Assembly: GCA_039767595.1 (NCBI GenBank)
Contig: JBDNBY010000080.1
Location: 1-58,134 of the forward strand
Reading direction: 5' to 3'
DNA: 58,134 bases
DNA from: Paracoccaceae bacterium
GTDB lineage: Bacteria > Pseudomonadota > Alphaproteobacteria > Rhodobacterales > Rhodobacteraceae
The position numbers and the translations under genes are program-made. Every line of letters begins with the position of its first letter. The first letter of the stretch is position 1. Below the pieces are notes generated by a model. The model searched no databases, had not been told where the DNA came from, and saw only the letters and a program-made list of their open reading frames with translations. This document shows, piece by piece, positions 27,808 through 52,660 of the stretch.

Positions 27808-27808
27808 C

Positions 27809-34222: not shown

Positions 34223-34720
34223 ATGACCATGGCGCTTGATCGGTGGATAGCATTGGCTATCCTGTCAATCTCATTGATTTATGGCTACACGGCGTTTTTT
34301 ACGATGGATGCGCTGCTACCGCCCTTCATGAAATTTAATCCAGTTTGGCCCAGCACCTTTCCCAAAGTACTCTCTGTGTTGGCTGTTGTGACGTCTTTAG
34401 TGATCGTTTTGGGCATTGAAAAGGCCCCGCCAAGCGACAAAACGCCCGACATCGATTACCGCCGCCTAGGAGAGTATCATCTGATCCCAGCGCTGGCGCT
34501 CTTGGCGATGATGGTGGCCTATGCATTGTTGCTGCGTCCCTTGGGGTTTTTGGCCTCAACATTTCTATTTCTCTCACTCTCATCGCTGATCCTAGGGGAG
34601 CGGCGCTATGTGATTATTGTTCTGGCCAGTTCGATTGCCGCGGGCGGCATTTGGTATTTGGTCGAACAGGTTTTGGGCATTTTCTTGCGCCCTTGGCCCC
34701 TATTTATCGTTGGAGGCTGA
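34223..34720 (+). CDS. tctB: tripartite tricarboxylate transporter small membrane subunit
   Basis: A 4-TM protein of about 165 aa lying between tctC and tctA. The ATG at 34223 has an AAGGA RBS, whereas the track ORF starts at 34175. Confidence 0.7.
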   Translation: MTMALDRWIALAILSISLIYGYTAFFTMDALLPPFMKFNPVWPSTFPKVLSVLAVVTSLVIVLGIEKAPPSDKTPDIDYRRLGEYHLIPALALLAMMVAYALLLRPLGFLASTFLFLSLSSLILGERRYVIIVLASSIAAGGIWYLVEQVLGIFLRPWPLFIVGG

Positions 34721-34721
34721 C

Positions 34722-37425: not shown

Positions 37426-38231
37426 GTGATGTTGCCGATTGGTGGACAACCGCCATTATCGATATGGAGCCGGGGAAAATCGATTTGCGCGGCCATCCCA
37501 TTCAAAGTTTAATTGGCACGCTCAGCTTTGCGCAAATGGTCTGGTTGATGACCCGTGGTGATCTGCCCACGGATGGCCAAAGCGTTCTGTTTGAGGCGGC
37601 GCTTGTCTCGGCGGTCGATCATGGCCCGCAGGCCCCATCGATTGCCGCGGCGCGCATGGCGGTGACCTGCGGCCTGCCGCTCAATAACGCGATGGCGACA
37701 GGGGTTAATATGCTGGGCGATGTGCATGGCGGCGCAGGCGAACAAGCGATCGAGCTTTATCACATCATCGCAGAGCTTGATCACAGCGGCATTGAGATGC
37801 CCCACGCCATCGCCCAAGGGATTGCACAGTGGCAACAGACACGCTCGCCCTATCTGCCTGGGTTTGGTCATAGGTTCCACAAACCTGTTGATCCACGCGC
37901 CCCGCGATTGATGCAGCTTGTGCAGGAGGCCGCACAAGCGGGCGTCATCCACGGTACATTTCGCGAGATTGCATTGGGTGTTGAGGCGCATCTCAGCGCT
38001 ACCAAAAAGCGGCCCATCCCCATGAATATAGATGGGGCCACAGCAGTGATCTACGCCGAGCTGGGCTTTGCCCCGCCATTGGCACGCGGGCTGTTTTGTA
38101 TATCGCGCTCGGTTGGCATCTTGGCCCATGCATGGGAACAACAACAGCAAGGCGGCCGAAACAAAGGCCCGACACCGCCTCAGTACCGCTGGACATACGT
38201 GCCCAATGCAGCGCCCGAGGGTCACGAGTAG
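37422..38231 (+). CDS. short citrate-synthase-family protein (citryl-CoA lyase type)
   Basis: 269 aa, corresponding to the catalytic part of citrate synthase. The equivalents of the three catalytic residues are seen (DVHGGAGE, PGFGHRFHKPVDPR, MNIDGATAV). There is an ATGA overlap with the CoA-transferase gene. Confidence 0.75.
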   Translation: MSDVADWWTTAIIDMEPGKIDLRGHPIQSLIGTLSFAQMVWLMTRGDLPTDGQSVLFEAALVSAVDHGPQAPSIAAARMAVTCGLPLNNAMATGVNMLGDVHGGAGEQAIELYHIIAELDHSGIEMPHAIAQGIAQWQQTRSPYLPGFGHRFHKPVDPRAPRLMQLVQEAAQAGVIHGTFREIALGVEAHLSATKKRPIPMNIDGATAVIYAELGFAPPLARGLFCISRSVGILAHAWEQQQQGGRNKGPTPPQYRWTYVPNAAPEGHE

Positions 38232-38236: not shown

Positions 38237-38698
38237 TCAGATACCGATCGCGCCGCAAATTCGGTGAAGTGTTTCATACTCATCGGCGCTAAGCACTGCA
38301 GAGGTCAGGGCCTCATAGGCAAACGCGGGCATCGGAGTGATATGCGCTTTGGGATGCTGGGTGACGTGTACTTCTAACGCCTCGGCGATGCACACGGGTC
38401 GGCCGGCCTGTAGCATCGTTTGATGGATATGAAACCGCTGCGCATCGACGCCCAAAACGCGCGTCTGCACGACAAGATCCGCCCCCTCATGCACTTCTTT
38501 AAGGAACTTGCGGTGATCTTCGACAACATAGATCGTCGCCCCTGTGCGATCTCGATAGGCTTGATCAAAGCCGACGGCATCTTGGACGTGATCCACTGCG
38601 TAGGAAAAGACCAACCCGTAGTAGGCATCTTGCATATGCCCGTTGTAATCAATCCACTCGGGCCGCACACGATCGTGATACTCAAACACGCCCCCCAT
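38237..38698 (-). CDS. hotdog-fold acyl-CoA thioesterase (4HBT_2-like; paralog of the lcdH C-terminal domain)
   Basis: 153 aa from the ATG at 38698 (MGGVFEYHD..). The motif WIDYNGHMQDAYY parallels WVDYNGHMNEAHY in lcdH. The track ORF (to 38839) runs into the amidohydrolase gene. Confidence 0.75.
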   Translation of the reverse strand: MGGVFEYHDRVRPEWIDYNGHMQDAYYGLVFSYAVDHVQDAVGFDQAYRDRTGATIYVVEDHRKFLKEVHEGADLVVQTRVLGVDAQRFHIHQTMLQAGRPVCIAEALEVHVTQHPKAHITPMPAFAYEALTSAVLSADEYETLHRICGAIGI

Positions 38699-38699: not shown

Positions 38700-39578
38700 T
38701 CAGAGCTCCATGCGGTAAAATCGATTTGCGGTGGCGAAAAATACATCCGCTTGCGCCGCCTCGGGGATGATTGCGCGATACGCCTCGGCCAAGGTCGCGT
38801 AATCGGAATAGAGCAAATCAACAGGGAAATTTGAGCCAAACATCACCCGTTGCGCCCCAAAGAGATCAAGGCAAATATCTACAATCGGGCGCATACTCTC
38901 AATGCTCCAATCATGGTCAAACATCCCCAAACCAGAAAGCTTGCAGGTGACATTGGGCAGATCGGCTAATCGCTTCAAATTCGAGGCCCAAATACCGATA
39001 TGCGCCATCTCGCGATTTTGCGGACTGCCCGCGTGACATAGGGCGAATTGCGTGTTGGGGCACTCTTGGATCAGCTCTGCCATCGCGGGGATCAACGCAG
39101 GCGTCAATTGCACATCAAACGACAGGCCCCGCTCTCCCAAAGCGGCCAGATGCGCCCGAAACATGGGATCGCTGATCAATGCATTGGTGCCATTGCGCGC
39201 GTCCTCGCCCGCGGCACGGCCAACAATCTGGCGCACCCCGCGCACAGAAGGCAGACGGCTCAGCCGGTCCAACTGCGCGCCGGCATCTGGGGCGGAGAGA
39301 TCGGCAAAACTAACTTGCACCATCGACCAATCGGGATGGGCCTGCGCCTGTGCATCGATCCACGCGGCCTCGGCCCAGCCGTCCTGCGCACCCACTTGAA
39401 CATGGACGGATCCAACGCCGCCTTGCGCGCGGACATCACCGCAGAACTCATCCATCAGGTAATTGCGTTGGATCGGCGTCGGATCACCAAAGAACCGCTC
39501 TACCCCCGTTTCCATCAACCAAGGATACTCAACGGCATTGAGATCCCAAAGGTGATGATGGGCATCAATCCAACTCAT
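38700..39578 (-). CDS. amidohydrolase_2 family metal hydrolase (lactonase/decarboxylase type)
   Basis: 292 aa from the ATG at 39578. The N-terminal IDAHHHLWD metal motif is typical of the PF04909 lactonase-type clade. There is an ATGA overlap with the upstream SnoaL gene. Confidence 0.8.
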   Translation of the reverse strand: MSWIDAHHHLWDLNAVEYPWLMETGVERFFGDPTPIQRNYLMDEFCGDVRAQGGVGSVHVQVGAQDGWAEAAWIDAQAQAHPDWSMVQVSFADLSAPDAGAQLDRLSRLPSVRGVRQIVGRAAGEDARNGTNALISDPMFRAHLAALGERGLSFDVQLTPALIPAMAELIQECPNTQFALCHAGSPQNREMAHIGIWASNLKRLADLPNVTCKLSGLGMFDHDWSIESMRPIVDICLDLFGAQRVMFGSNFPVDLLYSDYATLAEAYRAIIPEAAQADVFFATANRFYRMEL

Positions 39579-40579
39579 GTGCGCGGCACCTGTTGCATCC
39601 GCTCTAAAATATCCACGCCCAGCCCCTTCCAAAAATGCAAGACATCCATGAAAATCCAGTTTTCCGCCAATTTATCCCCATCGCGGCGGTACATGTCAAT
39701 CACGCGCATTTCGCCGCGCCCCTCCGAGGCCGGCATCCCCATAAAGCCGCCGTCATGCCGGGCTGTGAAATTCGGCCACCCGAAAAAGCCGCCATAGGCA
39801 CCTTCGGCAAGGCGGCAAATGTGCTGCGTTTTTGACCGATCGGAAAAGGCCGCGCGAAATGGGCCAGAATGCTGTTTGGCGTAACGCTCGATCGTGTAGC
39901 TCGAGCCGATCCCCGCTGGCCCCCACCACAGCATGTCATCATGCCATGTGCGGGCCAGTTCCTCCTCTAGCGGCAGACCCGATTGCCATGTGCCCAAATC
40001 GTTGATCATCGCATCGATCACCGCCCATGTCTGATCCCCCTCGTGGCGCGCGCGCGCCTGATACATCAGGCCATCATGGGTCAGTGGCCCCGGTTGAACC
40101 AAATGAGCCCCTGTTTGCGGCGCAAAGGGCATCAGCCCCGCTTGGATCATCACATGGGGGATATCAAAATACATCGCCGTCTCAACAATTCGGTCGCCCT
40201 CGACACGGTGAAATTCGCAATATCGTAGCATCGTCAGCTTGCCCGTTGGCGCGATCCCCAACCATGGCGCATCAAAGAGCCCCATCAGATGGCCCATTGA
40301 AACAACCCAGACATCGTCCTCTTGGCCTTGGACACGATTGTGCCCCGCCATGAAAATATCCATACGCCGCTGGATCCGCGTCAACGAGGTCAAAAGCGGT
40401 TGCCAAAACTGCGCCACGACGGCATTGGGGTCGCGAATCTCGTTAAAGGGATGAAACCCGCGCCACAGCGCATCAGGGGCGACATAGCGCGCAAACGCAG
40501 CGCTGGGATCATCAAAGAGCTGATCATAAAATGCGCGCACTAATGTTTTTTGTGCTGAAAAATCAAACATATGTCTCAC
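39575..40579 (-). CDS. double SnoaL/NTF2-like (ester-cyclase-like) protein, paralog 1
   Basis: 334 aa containing two NTF2-like halves. The C-half has GPAGIG..F..PF..AFSDR..GWPN..ENW..D.L..G.D.L.RM, shared with the 47531-48550 protein. The start is either the GTG at 40579 or the ATG at 40570. Confidence 0.7.
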   Translation of the reverse strand: MRHMFDFSAQKTLVRAFYDQLFDDPSAAFARYVAPDALWRGFHPFNEIRDPNAVVAQFWQPLLTSLTRIQRRMDIFMAGHNRVQGQEDDVWVVSMGHLMGLFDAPWLGIAPTGKLTMLRYCEFHRVEGDRIVETAMYFDIPHVMIQAGLMPFAPQTGAHLVQPGPLTHDGLMYQARARHEGDQTWAVIDAMINDLGTWQSGLPLEEELARTWHDDMLWWGPAGIGSSYTIERYAKQHSGPFRAAFSDRSKTQHICRLAEGAYGGFFGWPNFTARHDGGFMGMPASEGRGEMRVIDMYRRDGDKLAENWIFMDVLHFWKGLGVDILERMQQVPRT

Positions 40580-40594
40580 TCACCCTGCCAGTTT

Positions 40595-40608
40595 TGCATA
40601 CGCATTCA
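40595..40608. promoter_or_regulatory. weaker LacI-type half-palindrome TGCATACGCATTCA
   Basis: It shares the 10-mer TTTGCATACG (40593-40602) with the reverse complement of 40656-40665. It lies in the divergent control region. Confidence 0.3.
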
Positions 40609-40649
40609 AAAAAGAGTTGCCAAAACTTTACCGATAAGTCTAGTGTTTT

Positions 40650-40663
40650 TGCAAACGTATGCA
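40650..40663. promoter_or_regulatory. LacI-family-type operator palindrome TGCAAACGTATGCA
   Basis: A 14-bp CG-centred palindrome with 6 of 7 symmetric pairs (outer TTTGCA/TGCAAA arms are perfect). It lies 35 nt upstream of the ABC ATPase ATG, and a LacI gene is encoded in the same operon. Confidence 0.5.
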
Positions 40664-40697
40664 AATCAATTCACGACTTGGCACGGAGGCCTGTCAC

Positions 40698-41750
40698 ATG
40701 GCAGAAATACAACTGCGAAATGTCTCAAAACGGTGGGGCAATTTTGTCGGTGTTGATAAATTTGATCTGACCATCGCGGATCGTGAATTTTTGGTTCTGC
40801 TTGGCCCGTCGGGCTGCGGCAAAACCACGACGATGCGGATGATCGCAGGGCTCGAAGAGCCAACCGAAGGCGAGATTATCATTGATGGCAAAGTCATCAA
40901 CGACCTTGAACCCAAGGACCGCGATGTCGCCATGGTGTTTCAAAGCTATGCCCTCTATCCCAATAAAAACGTCTACGAAAACATCCGCTTTCCTCTCAAA
41001 GTGCGCGGCATTGATCCTAAGACACACGATGAAAAAGTGCGCCGCGCCTCGGCCATGGTCGAGCTGGATGAATTTTTACATCGCAAACCCGCCGAATTGT
41101 CCGGTGGTCAGCGTCAGCGCGTAGCCCTTGCCCGTGCCATTGTGCGCGAGCCGAACGCGTTTTTAATGGATGAGCCTTTGTCGAACTTAGATGCGAAATT
41201 ACGCGTCTCGACGCGGGCGCAGATCAAGAACCTCTCTCACGAGCTTAATGTCACCACGGTCTATGTCACCCATGACCAGATCGAGGCGATGACCCTCGCC
41301 GACCGCGTGGTCGTTATGGAAAAGGGCGTTGTTCAACAAGTGGGCAGCCCGACTGAAATTTATGACCGTCCGGCAAATACCTTTGTTGCGGGGTTTATCG
41401 GATCGCCCGCGATGAACTTAATGGAAGGGACGGCCGCAGCGGGCGTCTTTACATGCACGGATGCCGTATCCATCCCCGCGGCGCGCGCCGTTGATGGGGC
41501 GATCACCTTGGGGTTTCGGGCCGAGGACGCGCAGGTCGTTGAGACGGGCGGTCACATTAACGCGCCGATCTACACGCTCGAGTTATTGGGCGATGCGACG
41601 ATGGTCACGGTCAAAATCGCGGGGCGCTTAATCTCGGTACGTGCTGATAAAAATTATCGGGCGGCGATTGGCGATATGGTGTCAATCGCGGTCCCTGACG
41701 AAATTTGCCATCTGTTTGATCGCCAAACAGGTGCGCGGATCGAAGCCTAA
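40698..41750 (+). CDS. ABC transporter ATP-binding protein (MalK/UgpC, CUT1 type)
   Basis: Walker A (GPSGCGKTT), signature (LSGGQRQR) and Walker B (FLMDEPLSNLD) motifs are present, with a C-terminal TOBE-like domain. The ATG at 40698 has a GGAGG RBS, whereas the track uses 40659. Confidence 0.93.
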   Translation: MAEIQLRNVSKRWGNFVGVDKFDLTIADREFLVLLGPSGCGKTTTMRMIAGLEEPTEGEIIIDGKVINDLEPKDRDVAMVFQSYALYPNKNVYENIRFPLKVRGIDPKTHDEKVRRASAMVELDEFLHRKPAELSGGQRQRVALARAIVREPNAFLMDEPLSNLDAKLRVSTRAQIKNLSHELNVTTVYVTHDQIEAMTLADRVVVMEKGVVQQVGSPTEIYDRPANTFVAGFIGSPAMNLMEGTAAAGVFTCTDAVSIPAARAVDGAITLGFRAEDAQVVETGGHINAPIYTLELLGDATMVTVKIAGRLISVRADKNYRAAIGDMVSIAVPDEICHLFDRQTGARIEA

Positions 41751-41782
41751 GGCTTTGGCAATCGGCCCTTGGGCCAAGACAA

Positions 41783-41807
41783 CAGTGCGCGGTTGCAAGG
41801 CGCACTG
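41783..41807 (+). promoter_or_regulatory. intercistronic stem-loop after ATPase gene
   Basis: A perfect 8-bp stem (CAGTGCGC / GCGCACTG) has a 9-nt loop and no T-run. Confidence 0.4.
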
Positions 41808-41831
41808 AATACATAAACAGGGAGACACTTG

Positions 41832-43058
41832 ATGTTCTTACGTAAACTTATCCTCGCCAGTGGCCTGTCCATCACAGCTGGGACAGCCGCACTCGCATGT
41901 GACGTCGGTGCACGAGTTAGCATCGTCGGAAACGAATTTCCAGCCATCCAAACTGTGGGCGCCGAAGCGGCCGCTTGCTCGGGTGCAGAGGTCAAAACCA
42001 ACCTGACGGCTGACCACCAAAAGATCAACTTGCCAGGCATGCAAGGCAATCCAGCGGAATACACATCCGCGATTGTTGCCAACTCTTCAATTGTTGCGTT
42101 GATGAACGAAGACGTGATCCGCCCCTTGGATGATCTCGTGGCCAAACATGGCAGCAGCCTGAAGAAAAACCAACTGATCACCATTGATGGCAAAGTGATG
42201 GCCGTCGCCTTTATGGCCAATGCACAGCATTTGGTCTATCGCGCCGACGTGCTCGAGGCTGCTGGCCTCACGCCGCCAAAAACCTACGAAGAGATGCTCT
42301 CAGCCGCGCAAACCATTCGCGACAAAGGCCTGATGCAAAACCCAGTGGGCGGCGCCTACATGGCGGGTTGGAACCTGGCCCAAGAGTTCAACAACATGTA
42401 CCTTGGCATGGGCGGTGCGTTCTTCAAAGCCGGCACAGCCGAGCCGAGCATTAACTCAGAAGCGGGCGTCAAAACACTTGAGATGATGAAAGCCTTGTCA
42501 GAGTATATGAACCCCGACTTCCTCACACATGACAGCAATGCCACAAACGCCGAATTCCGTGCAGGCAATGTCGCGCTGATGAACATGTGGGGCAGCCGCG
42601 CTGCAACACTTGTCGATGCCGAGGGCGTGCCACAAGAAGTGGTCGATGGCTTTGCAATCGATGGCCCGATGACTGTAGGCGGGGGATCAACACCTGCGTC
42701 AACACTGTGGTGGGACGGCTGGACCGTTGCCAAGAATATCTCGGACGCCGAAGCAGAGGCTACGTTTATCGCCATGATGAACGGCATTCGCCCAGAGTTG
42801 ATGGCAAGCGAAGAGATCCGCACACAGGCTGTTTGGCTCATCGATGGCTATACGCCAACGGATGCCGCCAAAGGTGTTTTTGCCGCTGCGCAACAGAACA
42901 CAATTCCCTATCCAATGCTGCCCTTCATGGGCTTAATGCACACAGCACTGGGCGCAGAATTGTCTGACTTTATGCAAGGCAAAGAAAGCGCCGAGCAAGC
43001 TCTGGCTGATGTCGAGGCCGCATACCGCGCCGCAGCCAAAGAAAAAGGCTTCCTCTAA
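41832..43058 (+). CDS. ABC transporter extracellular solute-binding protein (family 1, sugar/CUT1 type)
   Basis: About 408 aa with a signal peptide (LILASGLSITAGTAALA). An SBP_bac_1-like sequence follows. GGGAGA lies upstream of the ATG at 41832. Confidence 0.85.
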   Translation: MFLRKLILASGLSITAGTAALACDVGARVSIVGNEFPAIQTVGAEAAACSGAEVKTNLTADHQKINLPGMQGNPAEYTSAIVANSSIVALMNEDVIRPLDDLVAKHGSSLKKNQLITIDGKVMAVAFMANAQHLVYRADVLEAAGLTPPKTYEEMLSAAQTIRDKGLMQNPVGGAYMAGWNLAQEFNNMYLGMGGAFFKAGTAEPSINSEAGVKTLEMMKALSEYMNPDFLTHDSNATNAEFRAGNVALMNMWGSRAATLVDAEGVPQEVVDGFAIDGPMTVGGGSTPASTLWWDGWTVAKNISDAEAEATFIAMMNGIRPELMASEEIRTQAVWLIDGYTPTDAAKGVFAAAQQNTIPYPMLPFMGLMHTALGAELSDFMQGKESAEQALADVEAAYRAAAKEKGFL

Positions 43059-43066
43059 GTACCAAC

Positions 43067-43097
43067 GCAGGTGGCCAGATCCGCTCTGGCCACCTGC
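43067..43097 (+). promoter_or_regulatory. strong intercistronic stem-loop after binding-protein gene
   Basis: A perfect 12-bp GC-rich stem (GCAGGTGGCCAG / CTGGCCACCTGC) has a 7-nt loop. It starts 9 nt after the SBP stop and has no T-run. Confidence 0.55.
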
Positions 43098-43150
43098 CCG
43101 GTGCACGATTGCCATTCATCTGATATCATGTCTTTGATCATAGGATCCTC

Positions 43151-44182
43151 ATGAAACATAGAACGTTTTTTTGGTTCTTTTTACCAACTGGGCTTGCGAT
43201 GCTATTATTCATCGCATTGCCGATTGTGTCAGTTGTGTTGCAATCCTTATTCACCCCGCACGAAGCGGTTTTTGTGACCGTCGAGAGTTGCACGCCCTTT
43301 GCATGCACCCAAGAAACCACCATTGACCATAGCGCGACCGAGGCGCTGCGCGAAGCGGCGCCGATGGGGCGATTTGCCGGTCTTGATATCTATTTTGATC
43401 GTGGGCATTTGGCCGTCGCAGAAGTCGGCGCCTTGTGGCGCGATAGCCCAAGCTGGGCGCATTTCTTTGATCGGCTTGGCAATTTACCCTTTTATCGCGC
43501 CATGGGATTTACCCTGACCTACACGTTTGTCGTGACCCCGCTCTTGATCATCCTTGGCTTGATGATTGCGCTGGCGGTCAATGCATTGCACCGCAAACTC
43601 AAGGGGTTGGTCATTTTCTTTTCACTCTTGCCAATGATTGTGCCGCCTCTTGTTGGGTCGCTTGTCCTCTTTTGGATGCTCGACAGTCGCGGGATTTTAG
43701 GCTCGTTTTTGCAATGGCTTGCCGATGACCCTGACCTGTCGCTCAAGGCGTCGACGGGGCTAACGTGGATCATGCTCATTGTGTATGGCGTATGGCATTC
43801 GGCGCCCTTTGCCTTTGTCGTCTTTTATGCGGGGCTTCAGACCCTGCCCCAAGACCAGATCGAGGCGGCGCGCATTGATGGGGCCAGCCGCTGGCAACAG
43901 GTGATGCATGTCATTGTGCCGCATTTGATGCCTTTGGTGACATTCGTCGCGCTGATACAATTGATGGATAACTTCCGCGTCTTTGAGCCGATTGTCGGCT
44001 TCAACGCAGAGGCACATGCGACATCCTTGTCGTGGATTATTTTCAACGATTTGGGCGGCGAGACACAGCAATTGTCAGCAGCCTCAGCGACCTCTGTGAT
44101 GACCATCATCGGCGTTTCGATTTTACTCACCCCCGTCTTGATCCGAACATGGCGCGATTTCAAAGGAAAATCTCATGCATAA
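43151..44182 (+). CDS. ABC transporter permease (MalF-like, with large periplasmic loop)
   Basis: 343-aa polytopic ORF with the EAA loop EAARIDGASRWQQVMHVIVP. An extended loop follows TM1. Confidence 0.9.
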   Translation: MKHRTFFWFFLPTGLAMLLFIALPIVSVVLQSLFTPHEAVFVTVESCTPFACTQETTIDHSATEALREAAPMGRFAGLDIYFDRGHLAVAEVGALWRDSPSWAHFFDRLGNLPFYRAMGFTLTYTFVVTPLLIILGLMIALAVNALHRKLKGLVIFFSLLPMIVPPLVGSLVLFWMLDSRGILGSFLQWLADDPDLSLKASTGLTWIMLIVYGVWHSAPFAFVVFYAGLQTLPQDQIEAARIDGASRWQQVMHVIVPHLMPLVTFVALIQLMDNFRVFEPIVGFNAEAHATSLSWIIFNDLGGETQQLSAASATSVMTIIGVSILLTPVLIRTWRDFKGKSHA

Positions 44183-45056
44183 CGCCATTCACAAACGTCC
44201 CTTGGGCCTGCGCCTGATGGCGAACGGGTTTGTTCTAATGTGGCTCGTGGCGGCGGCCTTTCCATTTATTTGGACGCTCTGGGGCAGCTTTAAGGTCGAG
44301 CTGGATTTCTTTTCCATCGCGGATTGGACAAATGCGATTTTCGGGCGCAACACCCAAGAGACCTATGGCAGCCCCTTCACCAGCACGGGATATTACGGCG
44401 CTTGGATCCAAGAGGAGTTTTGGCGCGCCTTTATCAACACGACGATCGTGTGCTTTTGCGTGGTGTGCACTTCTTTGACCATCGGCACGTTGGGCGGCTA
44501 TGCGCTGTCACGCTCTGGATTTCGCTATGTGTTTTGGCTGTTGCTGGCGGCGCTGATTTTCCGCGCCATGCCGCCGATCACATTGGTGGCCGGCTATATG
44601 CTGCCGTTCTTTGAGTGGAACGTATGGGGCATTTTGCCGACGACGATCATTGTCCTCGTGGCGATCAATCAGCCCTTTACCCTATGGATGCTACACTCCT
44701 TTTTCCAAAGCATTCCCAAGGAATTGGACGAGAGTGCCAAGGTCGATGGCTGCACGCAGTTCCAAGCCTTTCGCCATGTTATCATTCCTGTGATGTGGCC
44801 TGGGGTCATCACGACGGGCCTGTTTAGTTTTCTGCTGGCCTATAATGATTTTGCAGTGACCTCGATGCTCTTGAGCGAGGATAATCGCACAATGGTTCCC
44901 GAAATTGCAGCCTTTTTGGGCACAACATACACAGAAGGAAACGTCATGTTTGCAGTGGCTTCAGTCGTCTCGGCCACGGCGCCGCTCTTTGTGCTCGTCC
45001 TGTTTTTTCAGCGGCAGATCGTCAGCGGCCTGACCGCAGGGGCCGTCAAAGGATGA
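44175..45056 (+). CDS. ABC transporter permease (MalG-like)
   Basis: 293-aa ORF with the EAA loop ESAKVDGCTQFQAFRHVIIP. It overlaps the previous gene by 8 nt. Confidence 0.9.
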   Translation: MHNAIHKRPLGLRLMANGFVLMWLVAAAFPFIWTLWGSFKVELDFFSIADWTNAIFGRNTQETYGSPFTSTGYYGAWIQEEFWRAFINTTIVCFCVVCTSLTIGTLGGYALSRSGFRYVFWLLLAALIFRAMPPITLVAGYMLPFFEWNVWGILPTTIIVLVAINQPFTLWMLHSFFQSIPKELDESAKVDGCTQFQAFRHVIIPVMWPGVITTGLFSFLLAYNDFAVTSMLLSEDNRTMVPEIAAFLGTTYTEGNVMFAVASVVSATAPLFVLVLFFQRQIVSGLTAGAVKG

Positions 45057-45592
45057 AGGGCGCCAGACCAGAGCAAGCGGCCCTGACCCGCGACACAGAC
45101 CTGAGTAAAACCGACGCCACCCGCGCGGTGATTGAGGGCATGGTCGACGGGCTCAATGATCACCGCATTGATGATATCGGCGCGTTTTTCGCCCAAAGCT
45201 TTCGCTGGATGGGCAATTTTGGCTGCGGCACAAAAAATGGTCTGCAAGAGTTCCAAGACAATTGGCAACGCCCCTTTCAAGCGGCATTTTCAGATAAAGT
45301 CTGCATTGATGAGGCGCGGCTTTATATGGGCGAATGGGCCGCGGCCTTTGGCCGGCAGGAGGCCGTGCATTCAGGTGAATTCATGGGAGTTGCCCCAACC
45401 GGCAAGACCGTTGAAATCCGCTATATGGATTTTTGGAAAGTCGAAGACGGCAAAATCACCGACAATTATGTGATGGTCGATTTTCCGCATGTGCTCTCGC
45501 AATTAGGGGTGGATGTCTTTGGCGGTGAGGGCTGGGAGGCCTATGACCGCGGCACAAAAACGCCCCCGACACCAACTCAAAAGGACGCGTAA
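45053..45592 (+). CDS. single-domain SnoaL-like ester cyclase family protein
   Basis: 179-aa ORF with the ester-cyclase pattern ..W..PF..AFSD.. G.F.GV.PTGK.V....MDFW.V.DGKI..N.V..D....L.QLG. There is an ATGA overlap with the permease stop. Confidence 0.75.
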
Positions 45593-45594
45593 CG

Positions 45595-46905
45595 ATGGCT
45601 GTTGAATACCTAAAGACTCGCAAATCCGCCGAAGAAATCCGCGACGATGACGCAAAAACACGCGCAGTGGTCGAGGAAACCCTTGCCGACATCGAAGAAC
45701 GCGGCGATGACGCCGTTCGCGATCTGAGCCAGAAATTTGACGGCTATGCCCCGCACAGCTTTCGCCTAAGCCCCAGCGAAATCGAAGCGGCCATGCAAAA
45801 GGTCAGCGCGCGCGACATGGACGATATCAAATTCGCCCAAACGCAAATCCGCCGCTTTGCCCAAGAGCAGCGCGCCTCGATGACAGATATCGAAGTTGAA
45901 ACAATGCCGGGCGTCATTTTGGGCCATAAAAATATCCCTGTGCAATCCGTGGGCTGTTATGTGCCTGGCGGGAAATTCCCAATGGTAGCCTCTGCGCATA
46001 TGTCCGTGCTGACCGCCTCTGTGGCGGGTGTGCCGCGGATCATCGCCTCGGCCCCGCCCGTGAACGGTGCACCGCATCCGGCGATTGTGGCGGCGATGCA
46101 TATGGGCGGCGCGCATGAAATCTATGTTCTGGGCGGCATCCAAGCGGTGGGCGCGATGGCCATTGGCACGCAAACGATTGAGCCTGTGCATATGCTTGTG
46201 GGCCCTGGAAATGCCTTTGTCGCCGAGGCGAAGCGCCAGCTTTATGGACGCGTGGGCATTGATCTGTTTGCAGGGCCAACTGAAACGATGGTGATCGCCG
46301 ATGACACCGTGGACGCAGAGCTGTGTGCCACTGACCTCTTAGGTCAGGCTGAGCACGGCTATAATTCCCCTGCGGCGATGATCACCAATAGCCGCAAATT
46401 AGCCGAGGCGACATTGGCTGAGATTGACCGCCTGCTTGAGATCATCCCAACCGCTGATACTGCCGCCGCCAGTTGGCGCGATTACGGCGATATGATCGTG
46501 TGTGACAACCATGCGCAGATGCTCGATGTGGCCAATGACATGGCCTATGAACATGTCCAAGTGATGACCGATCGCGATGAGTGGTACCTTGAGAATATGC
46601 ATTCTTATGGTGCGCTGTTCCTTGGTCCGCGCACGAATGTGGCCAATGGTGATAAGGTGATCGGCACCAACCATACTTTGCCCACGAAAAAAGCAGGGCG
46701 CTATACGGGCGGCCTATGGGTTGGGAAGTTTCTCAAGACCCACTCCTATCAAAAAATCACAACCGACGAGGCCGCGACATTGGTCGGAGAGTATGGCTCG
46801 CGCCTTTGTATGCTTGAGGGGTTTGTCGGCCATGCAGAACAGTGTAACGTGCGCGTACGCCGCTATGGCGGAAAAAATGTCCCCTATGGAGAAGCCGCAG
46901 AATGA
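45595..46905 (+). CDS. histidinol-dehydrogenase-family NAD-dependent dehydrogenase (HisD paralog, not in a his operon)
   Basis: 436-aa ORF. The HisD Zn/catalytic positions are recognisable ([28 protein letters not shown]). The context is catabolic. Confidence 0.85.
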
Positions 46906-47534
46906 TCAAAGTTTATGGAAGAGCCACCTCAGTCAACGTCCAGGCGGTGATGTGGTGCATCACAGAGCTGGGGCTAGAGCATGAACGTGAGGACGTCGGC
47001 GGCGCCTATGGGGGGACAGATACCCCAGAGTTTTTGGCCAAGAACCCAATGGGCCTGATCCCTGTGATCGAAGATGGGGCTGTGACCCTCTTTGAAACAC
47101 CCACGATCCTGCGCTATGTGATACGCAGATATGGCACGCACCCTGCCGATCCTGCGGCAGCCGCGCAGCTAGAACTCTGGGCCGATTGGACACGGTCGCA
47201 TTTTTACAAACCCATGACCTATGGCGTCTTTTGGCAATTGATCCGCACACCAAAGAACGAGCGGAACCATGCGCAATTTGACAAAGATCGCCAAGAGATC
47301 AACGCCCTCACGCACACGATCGGCGCACAGATGCAAGGCCCGTATATCAATGGGGATACGCTCAGCATCGCGGATTTTGCCTTTGGCACGTTGCTTCATC
47401 GCTATTTCGAGCTGGAGTTTGAGCGCGACGCCCACCCCGCCGTCACCGCATATTACGAGGCGCTGAGACAGCGGCCGGCCTATCGGGCCCATGTCATGAA
47501 GGATCCCAATGACCTCAAAGTCGAGGGTGCATGA
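46902..47534 (+). CDS. glutathione S-transferase family protein
   Basis: 210-aa ORF with a GST N-domain ([25 protein letters not shown]) and a helical C-domain. It has ATGA overlaps at both ends. Confidence 0.8.
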
Positions 47535-48550
47535 ACGACCCGCACTCTGAGCATAAGTCGCGCATCGCGCCATTGCGCCGCGCCCTTTATAATTTTGAGG
47601 GCGCGCAAGTTGCGCTTGCGCTCAGAGATCTCTTTGCACCTGATGCCCAATGCCACATCTGCCATCCCTTTGGCACGATTGAGGGGCCTGAGGCGCTTTA
47701 TGATATGCTCTATGCTCCGTTGTGCGCGGCGCTCCCTGATCTAGAGTTTCGCGACGCCATTGTCATGGCGGGCCTTGATGATCATGGGCATCACTGGGTC
47801 GGGTGCAGCGGTCATATCATGGGCACCTTCAGCGCGCCTTGGCTCGATATTCCTGCAACGGGGCATGTGATCCACATGCGCTATCACGAGTTTTACCGAT
47901 TTAAAGAGGGTCGCGTCGTCGAAGTCCAAGCGATTTGGGACATTCCAGAACTCATGATGCAAGCCCGCGCATGGCCCATGGTGCCGTCCCTTGGGCGCGA
48001 GATGTGCGTGCCCTGCCCTGCGCCGCAAAATGGCCATGTGCCCCCGCCATGGGATGCCGAGCACGCTGAGGCCAGCAAGCGCCATATCACCGCGATGTTG
48101 CATCACATGATTAAATTTCCCGGCCAAGGCGGCCCAGAGGTGATGGAAATGCCGCGATTTTGGCATCCTAAAATGAATTGGTACGGGCCCGCAGGCATTG
48201 GCACCGCGCGCGGCATTTCTGGATTTCGAAAATGGCATCAAACTCCGTTTCTCAATGCAATGCCCGATCGCGGGCAGTTCAATGATCAAATCACCTTTCA
48301 TTTCTTTGGAGATGGGGATTTCGCCGCCGTCACCGGATGGCCCAATATGATCCAAACGATCACTGGGGATGGGTGGCTTGGCATTGCGCCGGCAGGACAA
48401 AGTATATCTTTGCGCAGTTTAGATTTTTGGCGCCTTGAAGAGGGCCTCATTCGGGAAAACTGGGTTTTGATCGATTTGCTCGATATCTATAGCCAAGTCG
48501 GGATTGATGTCTTGGCACGCATGCGCGCACTCACCGCGGCAGGGGTGTAA
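47531..48550 (+). CDS. double SnoaL/NTF2-like protein, paralog 2
   Basis: 339 aa, collinear with the 39575-40579 product (HPF..G.F.APWL.I..TG..., then W..M.WYGPAGIG ... GWPN ... ENWVLIDLL). Confidence 0.7.
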   Translation: MNDPHSEHKSRIAPLRRALYNFEGAQVALALRDLFAPDAQCHICHPFGTIEGPEALYDMLYAPLCAALPDLEFRDAIVMAGLDDHGHHWVGCSGHIMGTFSAPWLDIPATGHVIHMRYHEFYRFKEGRVVEVQAIWDIPELMMQARAWPMVPSLGREMCVPCPAPQNGHVPPPWDAEHAEASKRHITAMLHHMIKFPGQGGPEVMEMPRFWHPKMNWYGPAGIGTARGISGFRKWHQTPFLNAMPDRGQFNDQITFHFFGDGDFAAVTGWPNMIQTITGDGWLGIAPAGQSISLRSLDFWRLEEGLIRENWVLIDLLDIYSQVGIDVLARMRALTAAGV

Positions 48551-48556
48551 CGATCG

Positions 48557-49579
48557 ATGGGCACAGTGCACTCCACAAAAATCACATCGTCCCAAGTGGC
48601 CCAGCGCGCCGGCGTCAGCCAATCGGCCGTCAGCCGCGTCTTTACCCCGGGGGCGTCCGTATCGCATAAAACCAAGGAAAAAGTCCTCGAAGCGGCCAAA
48701 GACCTCGGCTATCGCCCCAACTCTTTGGCGCGGGCGATGGTGTCGGGGCGCTCGATGATCATTGGGCTGGTCGTGGCCTATTTCGACAATCAATTCTATC
48801 CCGAGGCCCTTGAAAAGCTATCAAATTCGTTACAGGCTAAAGGCTATCACGTGCTCATCTTTACCGCGGCGCGCACGGCGGCGGACACGTTGGATCAAGT
48901 GATCGACGAAATCTTGGATTACCAAGTGGATGGCATCATCGCCGCCTCCGTGGCCCTGTCGTCAGATCTGTCCGAACGGTGCCGCGCGGCCAATATTCCG
49001 ATTGTGTTTTTCAACCGCTCGCAAGACGGGCATGATATCTCCGCCGTCACGTCGGACAACTATGCCGGCGGCTCAAAAGTGGCCGCCCATTTGATCGCAT
49101 GCGGTCATAGATCCATCGGCTATATCGCCGGTTGGGAAGGCGCCTCTACTCAGCGAGATCGCGAAGCAGGGTTTATCGCAGGGCTGCAGGCCCATGGTCT
49201 GAGCCTGTATAAACGTGAGGTTGGCAATTTTCGCATGGATCAAGCGCGCGATGCGACGCTACGCATGTTTGCCACTGCGCCGCCCACTGCCGTCTTTGTC
49301 GCCAATGATCACATGGCCTTGGCGGTGATGGACTGTTTGCGCTATGATCTTGGGCTGCGCATTCCCAAGGATGTGGCCGTCGTCGGTTACGATGATGTGC
49401 CGGCCGCGGCATGGCCGTCGTATAACCTCACGACCGTGCGGCAACCGGCCAACCGCATGGTGGCTGCGGCCATCGACACGCTGTTGGCAAAGATCGACAA
49501 CCAAGACATCGCCCCCCAACATATACAAATCGACGGTCCTTTGGTGATCCGTCGGTCCACTCAATGTGACGAAGGATAG
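48557..49579 (+). CDS. LacI-family transcriptional regulator
   Basis: 340-aa ORF. The N-terminal HTH (ITSSQVAQRAGVSQSAVSRVF) is followed by a periplasmic-binding-protein-like effector domain. Confidence 0.9.
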   Translation: MGTVHSTKITSSQVAQRAGVSQSAVSRVFTPGASVSHKTKEKVLEAAKDLGYRPNSLARAMVSGRSMIIGLVVAYFDNQFYPEALEKLSNSLQAKGYHVLIFTAARTAADTLDQVIDEILDYQVDGIIAASVALSSDLSERCRAANIPIVFFNRSQDGHDISAVTSDNYAGGSKVAAHLIACGHRSIGYIAGWEGASTQRDREAGFIAGLQAHGLSLYKREVGNFRMDQARDATLRMFATAPPTAVFVANDHMALAVMDCLRYDLGLRIPKDVAVVGYDDVPAAAWPSYNLTTVRQPANRMVAAAIDTLLAKIDNQDIAPQHIQIDGPLVIRRSTQCDEG

Positions 49580-49583
49580 CGCC

Positions 49584-50573
49584 ATGAAAGGGTTTGACCC
49601 AAAGTTTACGGATTTCCCCGACTACATCATCGGCATCACCAAAGAAATTTGGGAAGATCGCGGCATAGCCACGCTTCATCATTATTATGCGCCCGATATT
49701 ATCGTCCGCTCACCCAGCAGTATCGTGCAGGGCAACCAAGGTGTGATTGCCGCGACAATGGCCACTTTGGCCGAGTTCCCCGACCGGACACTCCTCGGCG
49801 AGGATGTGATTTGGAACGGCACGCCAGAGACCGGCATGCTCTCGTCCCATCGCCTGCATTCGACGGCGACCCATGCCAATTCTGGCGTGTATGGTGCGGC
49901 GACGGGCAAACAGCTGCGCTATCGGATTATCGCAGATTGCCACGCCCGCGATAATCAAATCGATGACGAATGGCTGATCCGCGATCAAGGGGCGATTGTG
50001 CGCCAATTGGGCTGGACCCCGCGCGAGTTTGCCCGCGACTTAATTCAGCGCGAAGGCGGCCCAGATCACTGCGCCCATCCCTTTAACCCCAAAGATGATC
50101 TCCAAGGCCCCTATACGGGCACAGGCAATGATAACGAATGGGGCGCGCGCTATGCCGACATCCTCAATCAAATCATGAAGGCAGACTTCTCGGTTATTCC
50201 AAATGCATATGATCGGGCCGCCAATCTGGCTTATGCTGGGGGTATTGAGGCTCTTTCCCATGAGGGGGCTGATCAATTCTGGATGGGCCTGCGCGCCTCG
50301 TTCCCCAATGCGCGCTTTACCATTCACCATCAGATCGGCCGCTCGGATCCCATGATGCCGCCCCGCGCCGCCCTGCGTTGGAGCCTGACCGGCCTTCATG
50401 ATGGTTGGGGCAGCTTTGGCGCCCCCACGGGCGCGCCCGTGCATATCATGGGCGCCTCACATGCCGAATTTGGCGCCGTGATCAGCGGACAGCCTAAACT
50501 GCGCCGTGAATGGGCGCTCTTTGATGAAACAGCCGTTTGGAAACAGATTTTATTACACACAGGTGAGCTATGA
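49584..50573 (+). CDS. double SnoaL/NTF2-like protein, divergent paralog 3
   Basis: About 329 aa from the ATG at 49584 (GAAGGA RBS). It has two ester-cyclase-like halves (LAEFPDR .. G.YG.ATGK; LRASFPNA .. GWGSFGAPTGAPV). Confidence 0.65.
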   Translation: MKGFDPKFTDFPDYIIGITKEIWEDRGIATLHHYYAPDIIVRSPSSIVQGNQGVIAATMATLAEFPDRTLLGEDVIWNGTPETGMLSSHRLHSTATHANSGVYGAATGKQLRYRIIADCHARDNQIDDEWLIRDQGAIVRQLGWTPREFARDLIQREGGPDHCAHPFNPKDDLQGPYTGTGNDNEWGARYADILNQIMKADFSVIPNAYDRAANLAYAGGIEALSHEGADQFWMGLRASFPNARFTIHHQIGRSDPMMPPRAALRWSLTGLHDGWGSFGAPTGAPVHIMGASHAEFGAVISGQPKLRREWALFDETAVWKQILLHTGEL

Positions 50574-51535
50574 CCCCAGATGATATGACCCCGCGAATTG
50601 TCCGCTATGGCGATCTCAAGCCGTGCAAAACTGCGTTTATCGATGCGCATACACCAGGCAGTGATCAAAAAGAGAATTTCACAATCATTGGCGGCGGCGT
50701 CTCAGAGAGCCCTGACCAACATGTCCATATCACCATCCCGCACGGCTTTAACATCGGCGCGGCGGGTCAGCCCCCCAAATGCCGCAATTCGCTGCATTCG
50801 CACCGAACGGCCGAAGTGTTCTTTGTCCTGTCGGGGCGCTGGCGCTTTTTCTGGGGGCAATATGGGGACGCAGGTGAAGTCGTTCTAGACGAGGGCGACA
50901 TTATCAACATCCCCACTGGCATGTTCCGCGGCTTTGAAAATATTGGCCAAGACTACGGAATGATCATGGCAATCTTGGGCGGGGACGATGCGGGCGGCGG
51001 TGTGATTTGGGCCCCTCAAGTGATCAAAGACGCATCCGACCATGGCCTTATCCTTGGGGAAAATGGCGTGCTATACGATAGCAAACAGGGCCAGTCCCTG
51101 CCCGTAGGTGTTCGTCCGATGCCAATCATGTCTAACGAAGAGGCCGCAGACTACCCAACGCCCAGCGCCATGCAAGTCGTGGGCGGCTATGTGCGGCGCT
51201 ATTGGGATCTTGTGGCGATCTCGGACAAAAAACCGATCAAAGTCATCGGCGAACGCGGCGTGATCCGTGACAAACCGGGGTTTGAAGTGGATTTCGTCTC
51301 GCGCAAGAGCGCCAGCTCAACGATGCACGCCCATGATCGACCCAGTGTCCTGATGCCTGTCAAAGGACATTGGCGCGTCACATGGGAGGGGGGCGAGACA
51401 ACATTGGCCCCGGGCGACACGATGTCCGTGCCCGAACACCTCATGCATTGCGCTGTGCCCTCAATGACTGGCGAGGCCGCGCTCTATCACGTCATCGCCA
51501 CGGACGATCCCGCCGGCGAGACTTGGAAAGGATAA
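50570..51535 (+). CDS. bicupin protein
   Basis: 321 aa with two cupin barrels. N-barrel: HSHRTAEVFFVLSG, then GDIINIPTGMFRGFEN. C-barrel: HAHDRPSVLMPVKG, then GDTMSVPEHLMH. Confidence 0.7.
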   Translation: MTPDDMTPRIVRYGDLKPCKTAFIDAHTPGSDQKENFTIIGGGVSESPDQHVHITIPHGFNIGAAGQPPKCRNSLHSHRTAEVFFVLSGRWRFFWGQYGDAGEVVLDEGDIINIPTGMFRGFENIGQDYGMIMAILGGDDAGGGVIWAPQVIKDASDHGLILGENGVLYDSKQGQSLPVGVRPMPIMSNEEAADYPTPSAMQVVGGYVRRYWDLVAISDKKPIKVIGERGVIRDKPGFEVDFVSRKSASSTMHAHDRPSVLMPVKGHWRVTWEGGETTLAPGDTMSVPEHLMHCAVPSMTGEAALYHVIATDDPAGETWKG

Positions 51536-51538: not shown

Positions 51539-52660
51539 ATGACGATTAAAACAACTCATGTCGGATCGCTCCCACGCACCCAGGATGTGGTGGATTTCAT
51601 TTTCGCGCGCGAACAGGGCCAAGACTATGACCAAGCGGCATTTGATGCCGCCATGACCCGCGCGGTCAGTGAAACGGTCAAAAAACAAGTGGACGCCGGC
51701 GTAGATATCGTTAGCGATGGCGAGACCTCTAAAATCAGCTACGCCACTTATGTCAAAGATCGCTACACGGGGTTTGGCGGCGACAGCCCGCGCAATGCCC
51801 CCGCTGATCTCAAGCAATTTCCGACCTTTCTCAAACGCTTGGCCGAAGATGGGGGCACGCCGAAATATGCCCGCCCCATGTGCGTCGGTGAAGTGAAATC
51901 CAAAGGACAGGGCGAGTTAGAAAAAGACATCAACAATCTAAAATCCGCGATGGCCGAACATGGCGCGCAGCGCGGCTTTATGAATGCCGCCTCTCCGGGT
52001 GTGATATCGCTATTTTTACAAAATGATTTCTATCCTACGCGCGAGGCCTATCTCGCGGCGCTCGCCGATGCGATGAAGGCAGAGTATGAGACGATCATTG
52101 CAGCTGGCCTCGATGTGCAACTCGATTGCCCTGACCTCGCGCTCTCGCGGCACATGCTGTTTAACGATTTGTCGGACGAAGAGTTTATCAAAATCGCCAA
52201 TTCCCATGTCGAGGCTCTCAATCATGCCCTCAGCGATGTGCCTGCGGACAGAGTGCGCGTGCACATCTGCTGGGGCAATTATGAAGGGCCGCATGTGTGC
52301 GATATTCCCATGGCGAAAATGTTTGATACGCTCATGGCGACCAAATCGCGCTATGTTCTATTTGAGACCTCTAATCCTCGCCATGGCCATGAATGGGCCG
52401 TGTTCCGCGATCGCAAAGCGGATATCCCGGAGGACAAAGTTTTGGTGCCCGGCGTTGTGGATACAACGACCAATTTCGTCGAACATCCCGACCTTGTGGC
52501 GCAGCGCCTTGAGCGGTTTGTTGATATCGTCGGGGCGCAGCGTGTGATCGCCGGATCAGATTGCGGCTTTGGCACGTTTGCGGGCTTTGGTACAGTGGAT
52601 CCTGAAATCGCCTATGCCAAGCTGAGCGCCCTAAGCGCAGGGGCGCGGCAACTCTCGTGA
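51539..52660 (+). CDS. cobalamin-independent methionine synthase (MetE C-terminal domain)-like Zn protein
   Basis: 373-aa ORF with a Meth_synt_2-like N-terminus (TTHVGSLPR). Putative Zn-ligand contexts are VHICWGN and AGSDCGFG. Confidence 0.8.
   Translation: MTIKTTHVGSLPRTQDVVDFIFAREQGQDYDQAAFDAAMTRAVSETVKKQVDAGVDIVSDGETSKISYATYVKDRYTGFGGDSPRNAPADLKQFPTFLKRLAEDGGTPKYARPMCVGEVKSKGQGELEKDINNLKSAMAEHGAQRGFMNAASPGVISLFLQNDFYPTREAYLAALADAMKAEYETIIAAGLDVQLDCPDLALSRHMLFNDLSDEEFIKIANSHVEALNHALSDVPADRVRVHICWGNYEGPHVCDIPMAKMFDTLMATKSRYVLFETSNPRHGHEWAVFRDRKADIPEDKVLVPGVVDTTTNFVEHPDLVAQRLERFVDIVGAQRVIAGSDCGFGTFAGFGTVDPEIAYAKLSALSAGARQLS

Follow-up and report, generated by a model that had tools for sequence, protein, structure and literature searches.

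Known NTF2-fold enzymes and related pathways

The anthracycline methyl-ester (aldol) cyclases SnoaL, AknH and DnrD belong to the same Pfam family as four proteins, here called P1–P4, that are encoded between positions 39575 and 50573 of a 58,134-nt stretch of Paracoccaceae bacterium DNA (GenBank assembly GCA_039767595.1, contig JBDNBY010000080.1, positions 1 to 58,134; hereafter, the window). Unlike these cyclases, P1–P4 are mostly fused doublets and lie in a catabolic setting. Fusion itself is not new: Lsd19, the lasalocid polyether epoxide hydrolase/cyclase, carries two NTF2-fold domains per chain, as do P1–P3, and structures of this epoxide-opening enzyme have been solved, so that an earlier note on this DNA, which knew of no functionally characterised fused two-domain form, had put the case too strongly. 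However, Lsd19 is a biosynthetic enzyme from an actinomycete polyketide synthase (PKS) cluster for a polyether, whereas P1–P4 are encoded with a catabolic importer operon. Lsd19 is placed in the limonene-epoxide-hydrolase branch of the NTF2 fold, whereas P1–P4 match the Pfam SnoaL and SnoaL_2 models. The chemistry of Lsd19 and of MonBI/MonBII, cofactor-free acid/base catalysis, is of the kind that we infer for P2. Overall, fused double-NTF2 enzymes are already known, and the catabolic family described here appears to belong to an uncharacterised pathway.

Enzymes encoded around P1–P4 also have described counterparts. HpsN is the R-2,3-dihydroxypropane-1-sulfonate (DHPS) 3-dehydrogenase of DHPS and cysteinolate pathways; the cluster encodes an HpsN-like dehydrogenase which, in most related loci, lies near an HpsO-like short-chain dehydrogenase/reductase (SDR), and its annotated genes include no desulfonation gene. 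The lower protocatechuate 4,5-cleavage/gallate pathway (LigI/LigJ/LigK) and the non-phosphorylative deoxy-sugar pathways resemble the cluster in having a lactonase-type enzyme, a hydrolase and an RraA-like or HpcH pyruvate aldolase at the operon end. Unlike those routes, the cluster has neither an extradiol dioxygenase nor a sugar-acid dehydratase, its enzymes score under the curated family cut-offs, and the place of the upper route is taken by the NTF2 proteins, a cupin and a MetE-like enzyme.

We consider it probable, with moderate confidence, that P1–P4 are distinct, non-redundant enzymes of a single LacI-repressed catabolic regulon of marine Alphaproteobacteria. The observations behind this reading are domain content, synteny, operators, paralogy and motif differences. 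The four proteins are as follows.

39575–40570, minus strand: P1, two-domain SnoaL/NTF2 protein of 331 residues (Pfam, BLASTP, public gene calls); the open reading frame (ORF) extends to a GTG at 40579
45053–45592, plus strand: P4, single-domain SnoaL protein of 179 residues, related to the C-terminal half of P1 and P2
47531–48550, plus strand: P2, two-domain SnoaL/NTF2 protein of 339 residues, the apparent signature enzyme of the cluster
49584–50573, plus strand: P3, two-domain SnoaL/NTF2 protein of 329 residues, a separate and very conserved lineage; alternative ORF start at 49566

Public gene calls on identical metagenomic contigs place the start of P1 at 40570 (331 residues) rather than at the GTG at 40579, and that of P3 at 49584 (329 residues).

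Domain composition and structure models of P1–P4

The Pfam models SnoaL (PF07366) and SnoaL_2 (PF12680) match two stretches each in P1, P2 and P3 and one stretch in P4, with E-values of 1e-10 to 2e-23 and every score above the gathering cut-off; scores of 55–83 bits against a cut-off of 28.4 place the domains in the NTF2-like clan. AlphaFold2 models of P2 (predicted local distance difference test score, pLDDT, 86.5; predicted template-modelling score, pTM, 0.89) and P3 (pLDDT 85.8, pTM 0.87) each contain two alpha+beta cone domains connected by a linker of lower confidence. Taken domain by domain, both models are matched by Foldseek to the single-domain NTF2 enzymes IdmH, AclR, SnoaL2 and ChaU with template-modelling (TM) scores of 0.75–0.86. 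The earlier description of three proteins of about 330 residues built from two NTF2/SnoaL halves, accompanied by a fourth, 179-residue single-domain copy, is thus borne out by the ORFs, by the Pfam assignments and, for P2 and P3, by the models and their structural matches; since each long protein has two SnoaL/SnoaL_2 stretches, the halves are indeed NTF2-like.

When whole chains were compared, the top Foldseek matches to P2 were Lsd19 (3rga, 4rzm) and the MonBI–MonBII complex (9kw6, 9kw8), with E-values of 1e-8 to 1e-10 for 3rga, 4rzm and 9kw6. Both domains are aligned, at about 15% identity, with a whole-chain TM-score of 0.29–0.32 and a root-mean-square deviation of 16–17 Å. Because the whole-chain TM-score is only about 0.3 at a deviation of about 17 Å, the two domains of the P2 model are packed differently from those of Lsd19.

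None of P1–P4 reaches the cut-off of a curated NCBIfam family, and a sequence search of the PDB with P2 and P4 returned no close solved relatives, only remote or unnamed matches. Names given to their relatives in databases are generic (ester cyclase, polyketide cyclase, NTF2 family), and literature hits for ‘ester cyclase’ mostly concern the chlorophyll Mg-protoporphyrin cyclase. Full-text literature searches found no study of the cluster, which is not proof that it is unstudied. These results agree with the earlier view of P1–P4 as members of an uncharacterised family.

Paralogy and history of the NTF2 genes

Along their whole length, P1 and P2 align collinearly with 32% identity (BLASTP, E 1e-50). 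The motifs HPF, APWL.I..TG, W.GPAGIG, GWPN and ENW..D.L, which the earlier note had listed for them, are all present in both proteins and are conserved family-wide. P4 shares 28–30% identity with the C-terminal halves of P1 and P2, and P3 has no significant BLASTP similarity to P1 or P2 (E 0.6). Profile–profile comparison (hhalign) of the seven domain families of P1–P4 gave scores of 221 for the N-terminal domains of P2 and P1, 206 for their C-terminal domains, and 184 and 122 for P4 against the C-terminal domains of P2 and P1, respectively; the two domains of P3 score 40 against each other and are linked weakly to the remaining ones. Since the profile scores pair N-terminal domains with N-terminal and C-terminal with C-terminal ones, the fusion is older than the split between P1 and P2. 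By sequence, P1 and P2 qualify as genuine paralogs with collinear domains, whereas P4 groups with the C-terminal-type domain. P3, called a more divergent paralog in the earlier note, is divergent indeed, but is best described as a separate two-domain lineage, not as a demonstrable paralog of P1 and P2.

Orthologs are 63–70% identical for P2, 66–74% for P1 and 76–85% for P3, and P3 has a mean column identity of 84% in an alignment of 25 sequences that are 76–85% identical to it. Each of P1–P4 thus forms, by sequence comparison, its own orthologous group under strong constraint. When a library clustered at 50% identity was searched, 177 of its representatives belonged to the P1/P2-type family at E <= 1e-30; most are 320–370 residues long and collinear, and a few have about 700 residues and resemble four-domain chains. 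P2 relatives of double length in the library are P0374 (711 residues), P0386 (692 residues) and P0383 (538 residues); they have two or three matched stretches and are probably chains of four NTF2 domains.

The four genes had been proposed to represent an expansion in this genome. A recent paralog expansion can be rejected: P1–P4 are an old fixed set in which every copy has its own deep ortholog set, at 60–85% identity, and the complement of seven domains recurs elsewhere. Seven SnoaL domains per locus is the commonest number among complete loci and ten are found in two loci, so that the figure of seven, for which the earlier note knew of no catabolic parallel, is the norm.

Conserved residues

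Seven polar residues are conserved among 71 P1/P2-type members (29–66% identity): two of them, R117 and D137, belong to the N-terminal half, and the other five, D298, E309, N310, W311 and D315, to the C-terminal half. P4 has the C-terminal polar set, namely its last four residues (E309, N310, W311 and D315), in common with these members. As the conserved polar set sits there, the C-terminal-type domain is the likelier one to be catalytic, with the Asp…Glu/Asp-Asn-Trp…Asp constellation as the likely catalytic set.

The best PDB match of P4 is SnoaL (1sjw, E 9e-9), aligned over the whole domain. At the positions of Gln105, His107, His119 and Asp121, which we take to be the catalytic positions of SnoaL, the alignment to 1sjw places Tyr, Asp, Asn and Val of P4, and, judged from the motifs they have in common, P1 and P2 follow the pattern of P4 in their C-terminal domains. 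P4 scores 36.6 bits against a cut-off of 200 with the NCBIfam model SnoaL_meth_ester (NF033407) and falls outside that family, and P1, P2 and P3 do not match NF033407 at all.

Conservation and distribution of the cluster

Relatives of P2 were sought in one genome per species, which gave 567 confirmed relatives. The best 80 loci were studied, and the presence counts given here refer to the 48 loci with full 10-kb flanks. The best 80 loci belong to marine Alphaproteobacteria, namely the Roseobacter group (Aliiroseovarius, Ruegeria, Phaeobacter, Leisingera, Shimia, Cognatishimia and HIMB11), SAR116, and Ahrensia, Oceaniradius and Maritalea, and to a few metagenome-assembled genomes (MAGs) of Thiotrichales (Gammaproteobacteria). 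Carriers that can be cultured include Phaeobacter italicus CECT 7645, Leisingera aquaemixtae, Aliiroseovarius marinus and Ruegeria sediminis. Gene order was derived by mapping the window proteins onto the loci and by clustering all locus ORFs. The recurring order consists of an Amidohydro_2 gene and P1, both on the minus strand, and, running away from them, the ABC ATPase, the solute-binding protein (SBP), two permeases, P4, the HisD-like dehydrogenase and P2, which is followed by SDR, LacI, P3, bicupin, MetE-like, alpha/beta hydrolase and RraA-like aldolase genes. The transporter is present in 45 of the 48 loci and P3 in 43, followed by P1 (35), LacI (35), P4 (34), the HpsN-like dehydrogenase (33), the SDR (32), the cupin (32), the MetE-like protein (31) and the alpha/beta hydrolase (26); an RraA-like aldolase is found in 23 loci and HpcH in 2 more. 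In the lineage of the window the SDR is missing, a glutathione S-transferase (GST) precedes P2, and an HpcH aldolase occupies the usual place of the RraA-like one; both the GST and the HpcH variant recur in a few other loci. In marine metagenome data the family is represented by thousands of protein clusters, with single 90% clusters reaching up to 588–765 members. A DNA search of a plasmid collection returned fragments only, plus one decayed copy on a plasmid of Phaeobacter inhibens.

Five loci contain just LysR and SBP–permease–permease–P2, and five further loci, from SAR116 and relatives, have the same minimal set plus P3; P2 is thus the sole enzyme in the smallest of them. As every minimal operon retains the transporter and P2, and only some of them P3, P2 appears to be the signature enzyme of the cluster, and the pairing of an importer with a single NTF2 protein implies that P2 alone makes the imported compound usable by the cell. 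We regard these operons as the strongest argument that P2 would be a self-sufficient, cofactor-free first-step enzyme, with the other modules extending the route.

Individual loci depart from the common plan. Two of them (L053 and L060, about 750–13800) encode six SnoaL proteins with ten domains, the extras being a second P4-like gene and a 382-residue double protein, both halves of which resemble the N-terminal half of P3, and two others (L034 and L049) have an additional P1/P2-type double protein. A GMC oxidoreductase is present in some loci. The Thiolinea MAG locus (L066, 16541–18022) has the cluster without the transporter, with an aldo/keto reductase before it and a phospholipase-D-family gene after it; an aldo/keto reductase lies near the Ahrensia copy as well. 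The decayed remnant (L081) is on P. inhibens plasmid pDOK1-1-2 (NZ_CP019309.1, about 162900–166400) and holds a LysR gene, the ABC ATPase, an unannotated P2-like stretch and an ‘ester cyclase’, within a plasmid stretch with several insertion sequence elements.

Regulation and transcription units

P1 is transcribed divergently from the ABC operon, and the 118 bp that separate the two contain a pair of predicted operators found by motif search.

40594–40609: predicted LacI-type operator 1, TTGCATACGCATTCAA, 55 bp from operator 2
40649–40664: predicted LacI-type operator 2, the palindrome TTGCAAACGTATGCAA

As many operator matches arose in just 1 of 100 shuffles. The degenerate motif TGCAWACGYWTGCA occurs in 41 of 81 loci; it lies within the divergent promoter region of the cluster in every locus map checked, often as a pair with the same spacing, and in the Thiolinea locus, which has no transporter, it is found in front of the dehydrogenase. 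Palindromic operators are thus present in the promoter region and conserved together with the regulator, as expected for a LacI regulon. Because the operator pair is conserved, the encoded LacI very probably controls P1, the lactonase gene and the long operon together. Within the long operon, start and stop codons overlap by 4 nt between the second permease and P4, the HpsN-like dehydrogenase and GST, GST and P2, P3 and the cupin, and the MetE-like protein and the hydrolase, overlaps that may be read as translational coupling.

The longest-ORF start of the ABC ATPase, at 40659, falls within the operator palindrome; the public start is 40698 (MAEIQLRNVS...). An Rfam scan revealed no riboswitch in the cluster, a promoter scan stayed near chance level, and terminator matches were mostly within genes.

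Neighbouring genes

The remaining genes of the cluster are the following.

38237–38698, minus strand: 4HBT_2 thioesterase-fold protein, 153 residues (Pfam PF13279; also called on identical public contigs), last gene of the divergent P1 operon
38700–39578, minus strand: Amidohydro_2 protein, 292 residues (Pfam PF04909, 2.7e-38), probable lactonase of the LigI/fuconolactonase group
40698–41750, plus strand: ABC transporter ATPase of UgpC/MalK type, 350 residues (ABC_tran and OB_MalK domains)
41832–43058, plus strand: periplasmic solute-binding protein (SBP_bac_1/8), sugar/polyol/glyceryl-conjugate type
43151–45056, plus strand: two ABC permeases, 343 and 293 residues (BPD_transp_1; in 45 of 48 loci)
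45595–46905, plus strand: predicted HpsN-like NAD/Zn four-electron alcohol-to-acid dehydrogenase, 436 residues
46902–47534, plus strand: GST, 210 residues, a lineage-variable extra
48557–49579, plus strand: LacI-family repressor, 340 residues (in 35 of 48 loci)
50570–51535, plus strand: bicupin, 321 residues
51539–52660, plus strand: MetE-like (Meth_synt_2) protein, 373 residues, with conserved H-I-C and D-C-G motifs
52657–53397, plus strand: alpha/beta hydrolase, PcaD-like (similar to 3-oxoadipate enol-lactonase, under the cut-off)
53381–54148, plus strand: HpcH/HpaI-family pyruvate aldolase, 255 residues

In the PDB the dehydrogenase scores 376 and 374 bits against HpsN (sulfopropanediol 3-dehydrogenases) and 250 bits against true HisD, and its closest solved structures, CpHpsN and RpHpsN, align over the full length. 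It retains the residues that bind Zn (Gln/His/His), together with a catalytic Glu-His pair and an Asp-Lys pair (QaeH, EH, GDK and the C-terminal His align). In HpsN the signature G-R-Y-A/S-H ends in His126, which binds the sulfonate, and HisD has G-S-A-P-L instead (PMC11382572). At this position the window protein and all 42 syntenic orthologs have G-K-F-P-M. Since this motif loses the sulfonate-binding His, the substrate would be other than DHPS or cysteinolate, and is possibly less polar; the enzyme should oxidise a CH2OH beside C-OH or C-NH2 to a carboxylate. A true histidinol dehydrogenase is rejected by the bit scores, and a true HpsN by the signature motif.

The Amidohydro_2 protein scores 120 bits with the NCBIfam model of L-fucono-1,5-lactonase, under its cut-off of 400, and has PDB entry 4dlf as its best match (6.7e-17); it is probably a lactonase, as these are its nearest relatives, and it is syntenic in 22 of the 48 loci. 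The aldolase is nearest to 2-dehydro-3-deoxyglucarate aldolase, and an RraA-like aldolase holds the HpcH position in most related loci. Two unrelated pyruvate aldolase families thus occupy the same operon position, and therefore the route should end in a pyruvate-yielding aldol cleavage. Conservation of the bicupin is limited to the N-terminal barrel, which bears HxHxxxE. The H-x-C and D-C-G motifs of the MetE-like protein are presumably those that bind zinc in MetE. The SBP has only remote PDB relatives, the best not beyond E 1e-12. None of the neighbouring enzymes reaches a curated family cut-off, and the PDB sequence search gave no close solved relatives of the SBP, the cupin or the MetE-like protein. 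The 4HBT_2 gene occurs in only 6 of the 48 loci and the GST in only 2 (L024 and L068), most loci having an SDR after P2 instead.

Proposed pathway and alternative explanations

For the route sketched here we infer what the enzymes catalyse, in which order they act and what kind of compound is degraded. A polar metabolite would enter through an ABC importer of sugar type (CUT1), and P2 would carry out the committing first step, either a hydrolytic or eliminative cleavage or a ring opening; it is placed first because it is the sole enzyme that always accompanies the transporter. P3, and then P4 and P1, would act on later (keto/enol) intermediates. The chemistry of P1–P4 would be cofactor-free acid/base catalysis on carbonyl, enol or imine intermediates, in which bonds might be cleaved by hydrolysis or elimination, rings opened, or intermediates tautomerised or dehydrated. 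The HpsN-like dehydrogenase would turn a CH2OH beside C-OH into a carboxylate; the SDR (or GST), the metal cupin and the MetE-like zinc enzyme would modify or cleave the skeleton; and the lactonase and the alpha/beta hydrolase would open or cleave the product, from which a class II aldolase (RraA-like, HpcH here) would free pyruvate. Several considerations weigh against this scheme. Our searches found no experiment, characterised homolog or paper tying P1–P4 to a reaction, the data do not fix the substrate class, and the order of steps comes solely from gene co-occurrence. Moreover, NTF2 folds serve as non-catalytic binding modules too, and several enzymes needed by any known sugar route are missing from the operon.

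A more specific version of the scheme, to which we assign only a small probability, is that the cluster is a missing bacterial pathway for an abundant phytoplankton metabolite, the favoured candidates being the methoxy-cyclohexenones of the mycosporine-like amino acid/gadusol type. P2, and then P3, could represent a novel type of hydrolase that needs no cofactor and splits imine/enaminone C–N bonds, releasing amino acids, which would account for operons made of the transporter and P2, with or without P3. The MetE-like zinc enzyme could strip the vinylogous-ester methyl group, the HpsN-like enzyme could oxidise the hydroxymethyl group beside the tertiary alcohol, the cupin could cleave the resulting reductone, and the lactonase, hydrolase and RraA/HpcH aldolase could then yield pyruvate. 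A glyceryl-conjugate head group could be an alternative candidate substrate.

Among the other explanations, it is unlikely that the substrate is an unsaturated uronate or a deoxy- or otherwise modified sugar, broken down through a variant of a non-phosphorylative route. An SDR or GMC enzyme would oxidise the substrate to a lactone, followed by a lactonase of LigI/fuconolactonase type and a 2-keto-3-deoxy-acid aldolase yielding pyruvate and an aldehyde; the NTF2 proteins and the cupin would replace the usual isomerase/dehydratase steps, and oxidation of the aldehyde would fall to the HpsN-like enzyme, whose hydrophobic pocket (GKFPM) would accommodate lactaldehyde or propanediol. The CUT1-type importer and the LacI-family repressor fit such a route, as do the best matches of the relatives’ SDR (models of KduD, gluconate-5-dehydrogenase, glucose-1-dehydrogenase and rhamnose-1-dehydrogenase), of the amidohydrolase (L-fucono-1,5-lactonase, 4dlf) and of the aldolase (2-dehydro-3-deoxyglucarate and 2-keto-3-deoxy-rhamnonate aldolases), a weak match of the cupin to KdgF, and the His to Met and Tyr to Phe changes in the HpsN motif. 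However, a glycoside hydrolase, a kinase and a sugar-acid dehydratase of a known family are all missing, all curated family scores are under the cut-off, sugar-acid dehydration is not a known NTF2 reaction, the MetE-like enzyme would have no role, and the minimal operons contain P2 only. That the cluster is instead a pathway for DHPS or another C3-sulfonate, with the HisD-like protein as a true HpsN, is decidedly improbable. Although sulfopropanediol 3-dehydrogenases are its best PDB matches, its Zn-binding and catalytic residues are conserved and an HpsO-like SDR adjoins in most loci, the GRY(A/S)H motif with its sulfonate-binding His126 has become GKFPM in all 42 orthologs, the Pfam families of the cluster include no desulfonating enzyme (SuyAB, Xsc, CuyA) or sulfite exporter, and the dehydrogenase is missing from the P2-only minimal operons.

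There remain the explanations that concern the NTF2 proteins themselves. We see only a slim chance that some or all of them are non-catalytic, acting as ligand-binding or sequestering proteins, or as structural partners of the cupin, the MetE-like enzyme or the dehydrogenase. In favour of this, the NTF2 fold frequently serves as a binding module, and R117 and D137 are the only conserved polar residues left in the N-terminal halves of P1 and P2. However, P2 is the sole non-transport protein in minimal operons and so must be useful alone, the C-terminal-type domain has a conserved acidic constellation, and P3 is extremely conserved from end to end. The database names would make P1–P4 cyclases of secondary (polyketide) metabolism, in keeping with the Pfam SnoaL match and with SnoaL as the best PDB match of P4. 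Yet there are no PKS or tailoring genes nearby, where an importer and catabolic enzymes are found instead, and, as described above, P4 scores far under the SnoaL_meth_ester cut-off and has Y/D/N/V at SnoaL Q105/H107/H119/D121. With no PKS genes, none of the SnoaL catalytic residues and so low a subfamily score, a biosynthetic role as polyketide cyclases is very unlikely, and its probability close to negligible.

Other features of the window

Adjoining the SnoaL cluster, the window encodes a family III CoA-transferase and a short citrate-synthase-like protein (36157–38231). The same pair adjoins the cluster in HIMB11 (L034, 15248–17256), arranged differently, and this neighbourhood may be a functional link or chance. 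A second catabolic cluster, at 20579–29989, resembles carnitine or gamma-butyrobetaine degradation; its genes encode a BKACE beta-keto-acid cleavage enzyme, a 3-hydroxyacyl-CoA-dehydrogenase/4HBT thioesterase fusion, a Zn alcohol dehydrogenase, an enoyl-CoA hydratase, an ADP-forming CoA ligase, an acyl-CoA dehydrogenase and a DJ-1/AraC-type regulator. Rfam also reports a ‘Ruegeria cis8 sRNA’ (RF02646) at 35763–35890 on the minus strand (70.5 bits against a cut-off of 58), antisense within the TctA transporter ORF at 34617–36239, a match in keeping with the window coming from the Roseobacter group.

Implications

Bacteria of the Roseobacter group and SAR116 handle a large share of phytoplankton-derived carbon, and we know of no substrate for many of their ‘sugar’ ABC transporters. 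The cluster described here probably marks a widespread nutrient-degradation pathway, in which four NTF2 proteins and three further enzymes fail the tests of their nearest characterised families. Identification of its substrate would add a pathway to the map of the marine carbon cycle and give a function to a large family labelled ‘ester cyclase’. It would probably also reveal new reactions for the NTF2 fold, for the HpsN-like dehydrogenase and for the MetE-like zinc enzyme. With a conserved LacI operator, an SBP and several culturable carriers, the question is directly testable.

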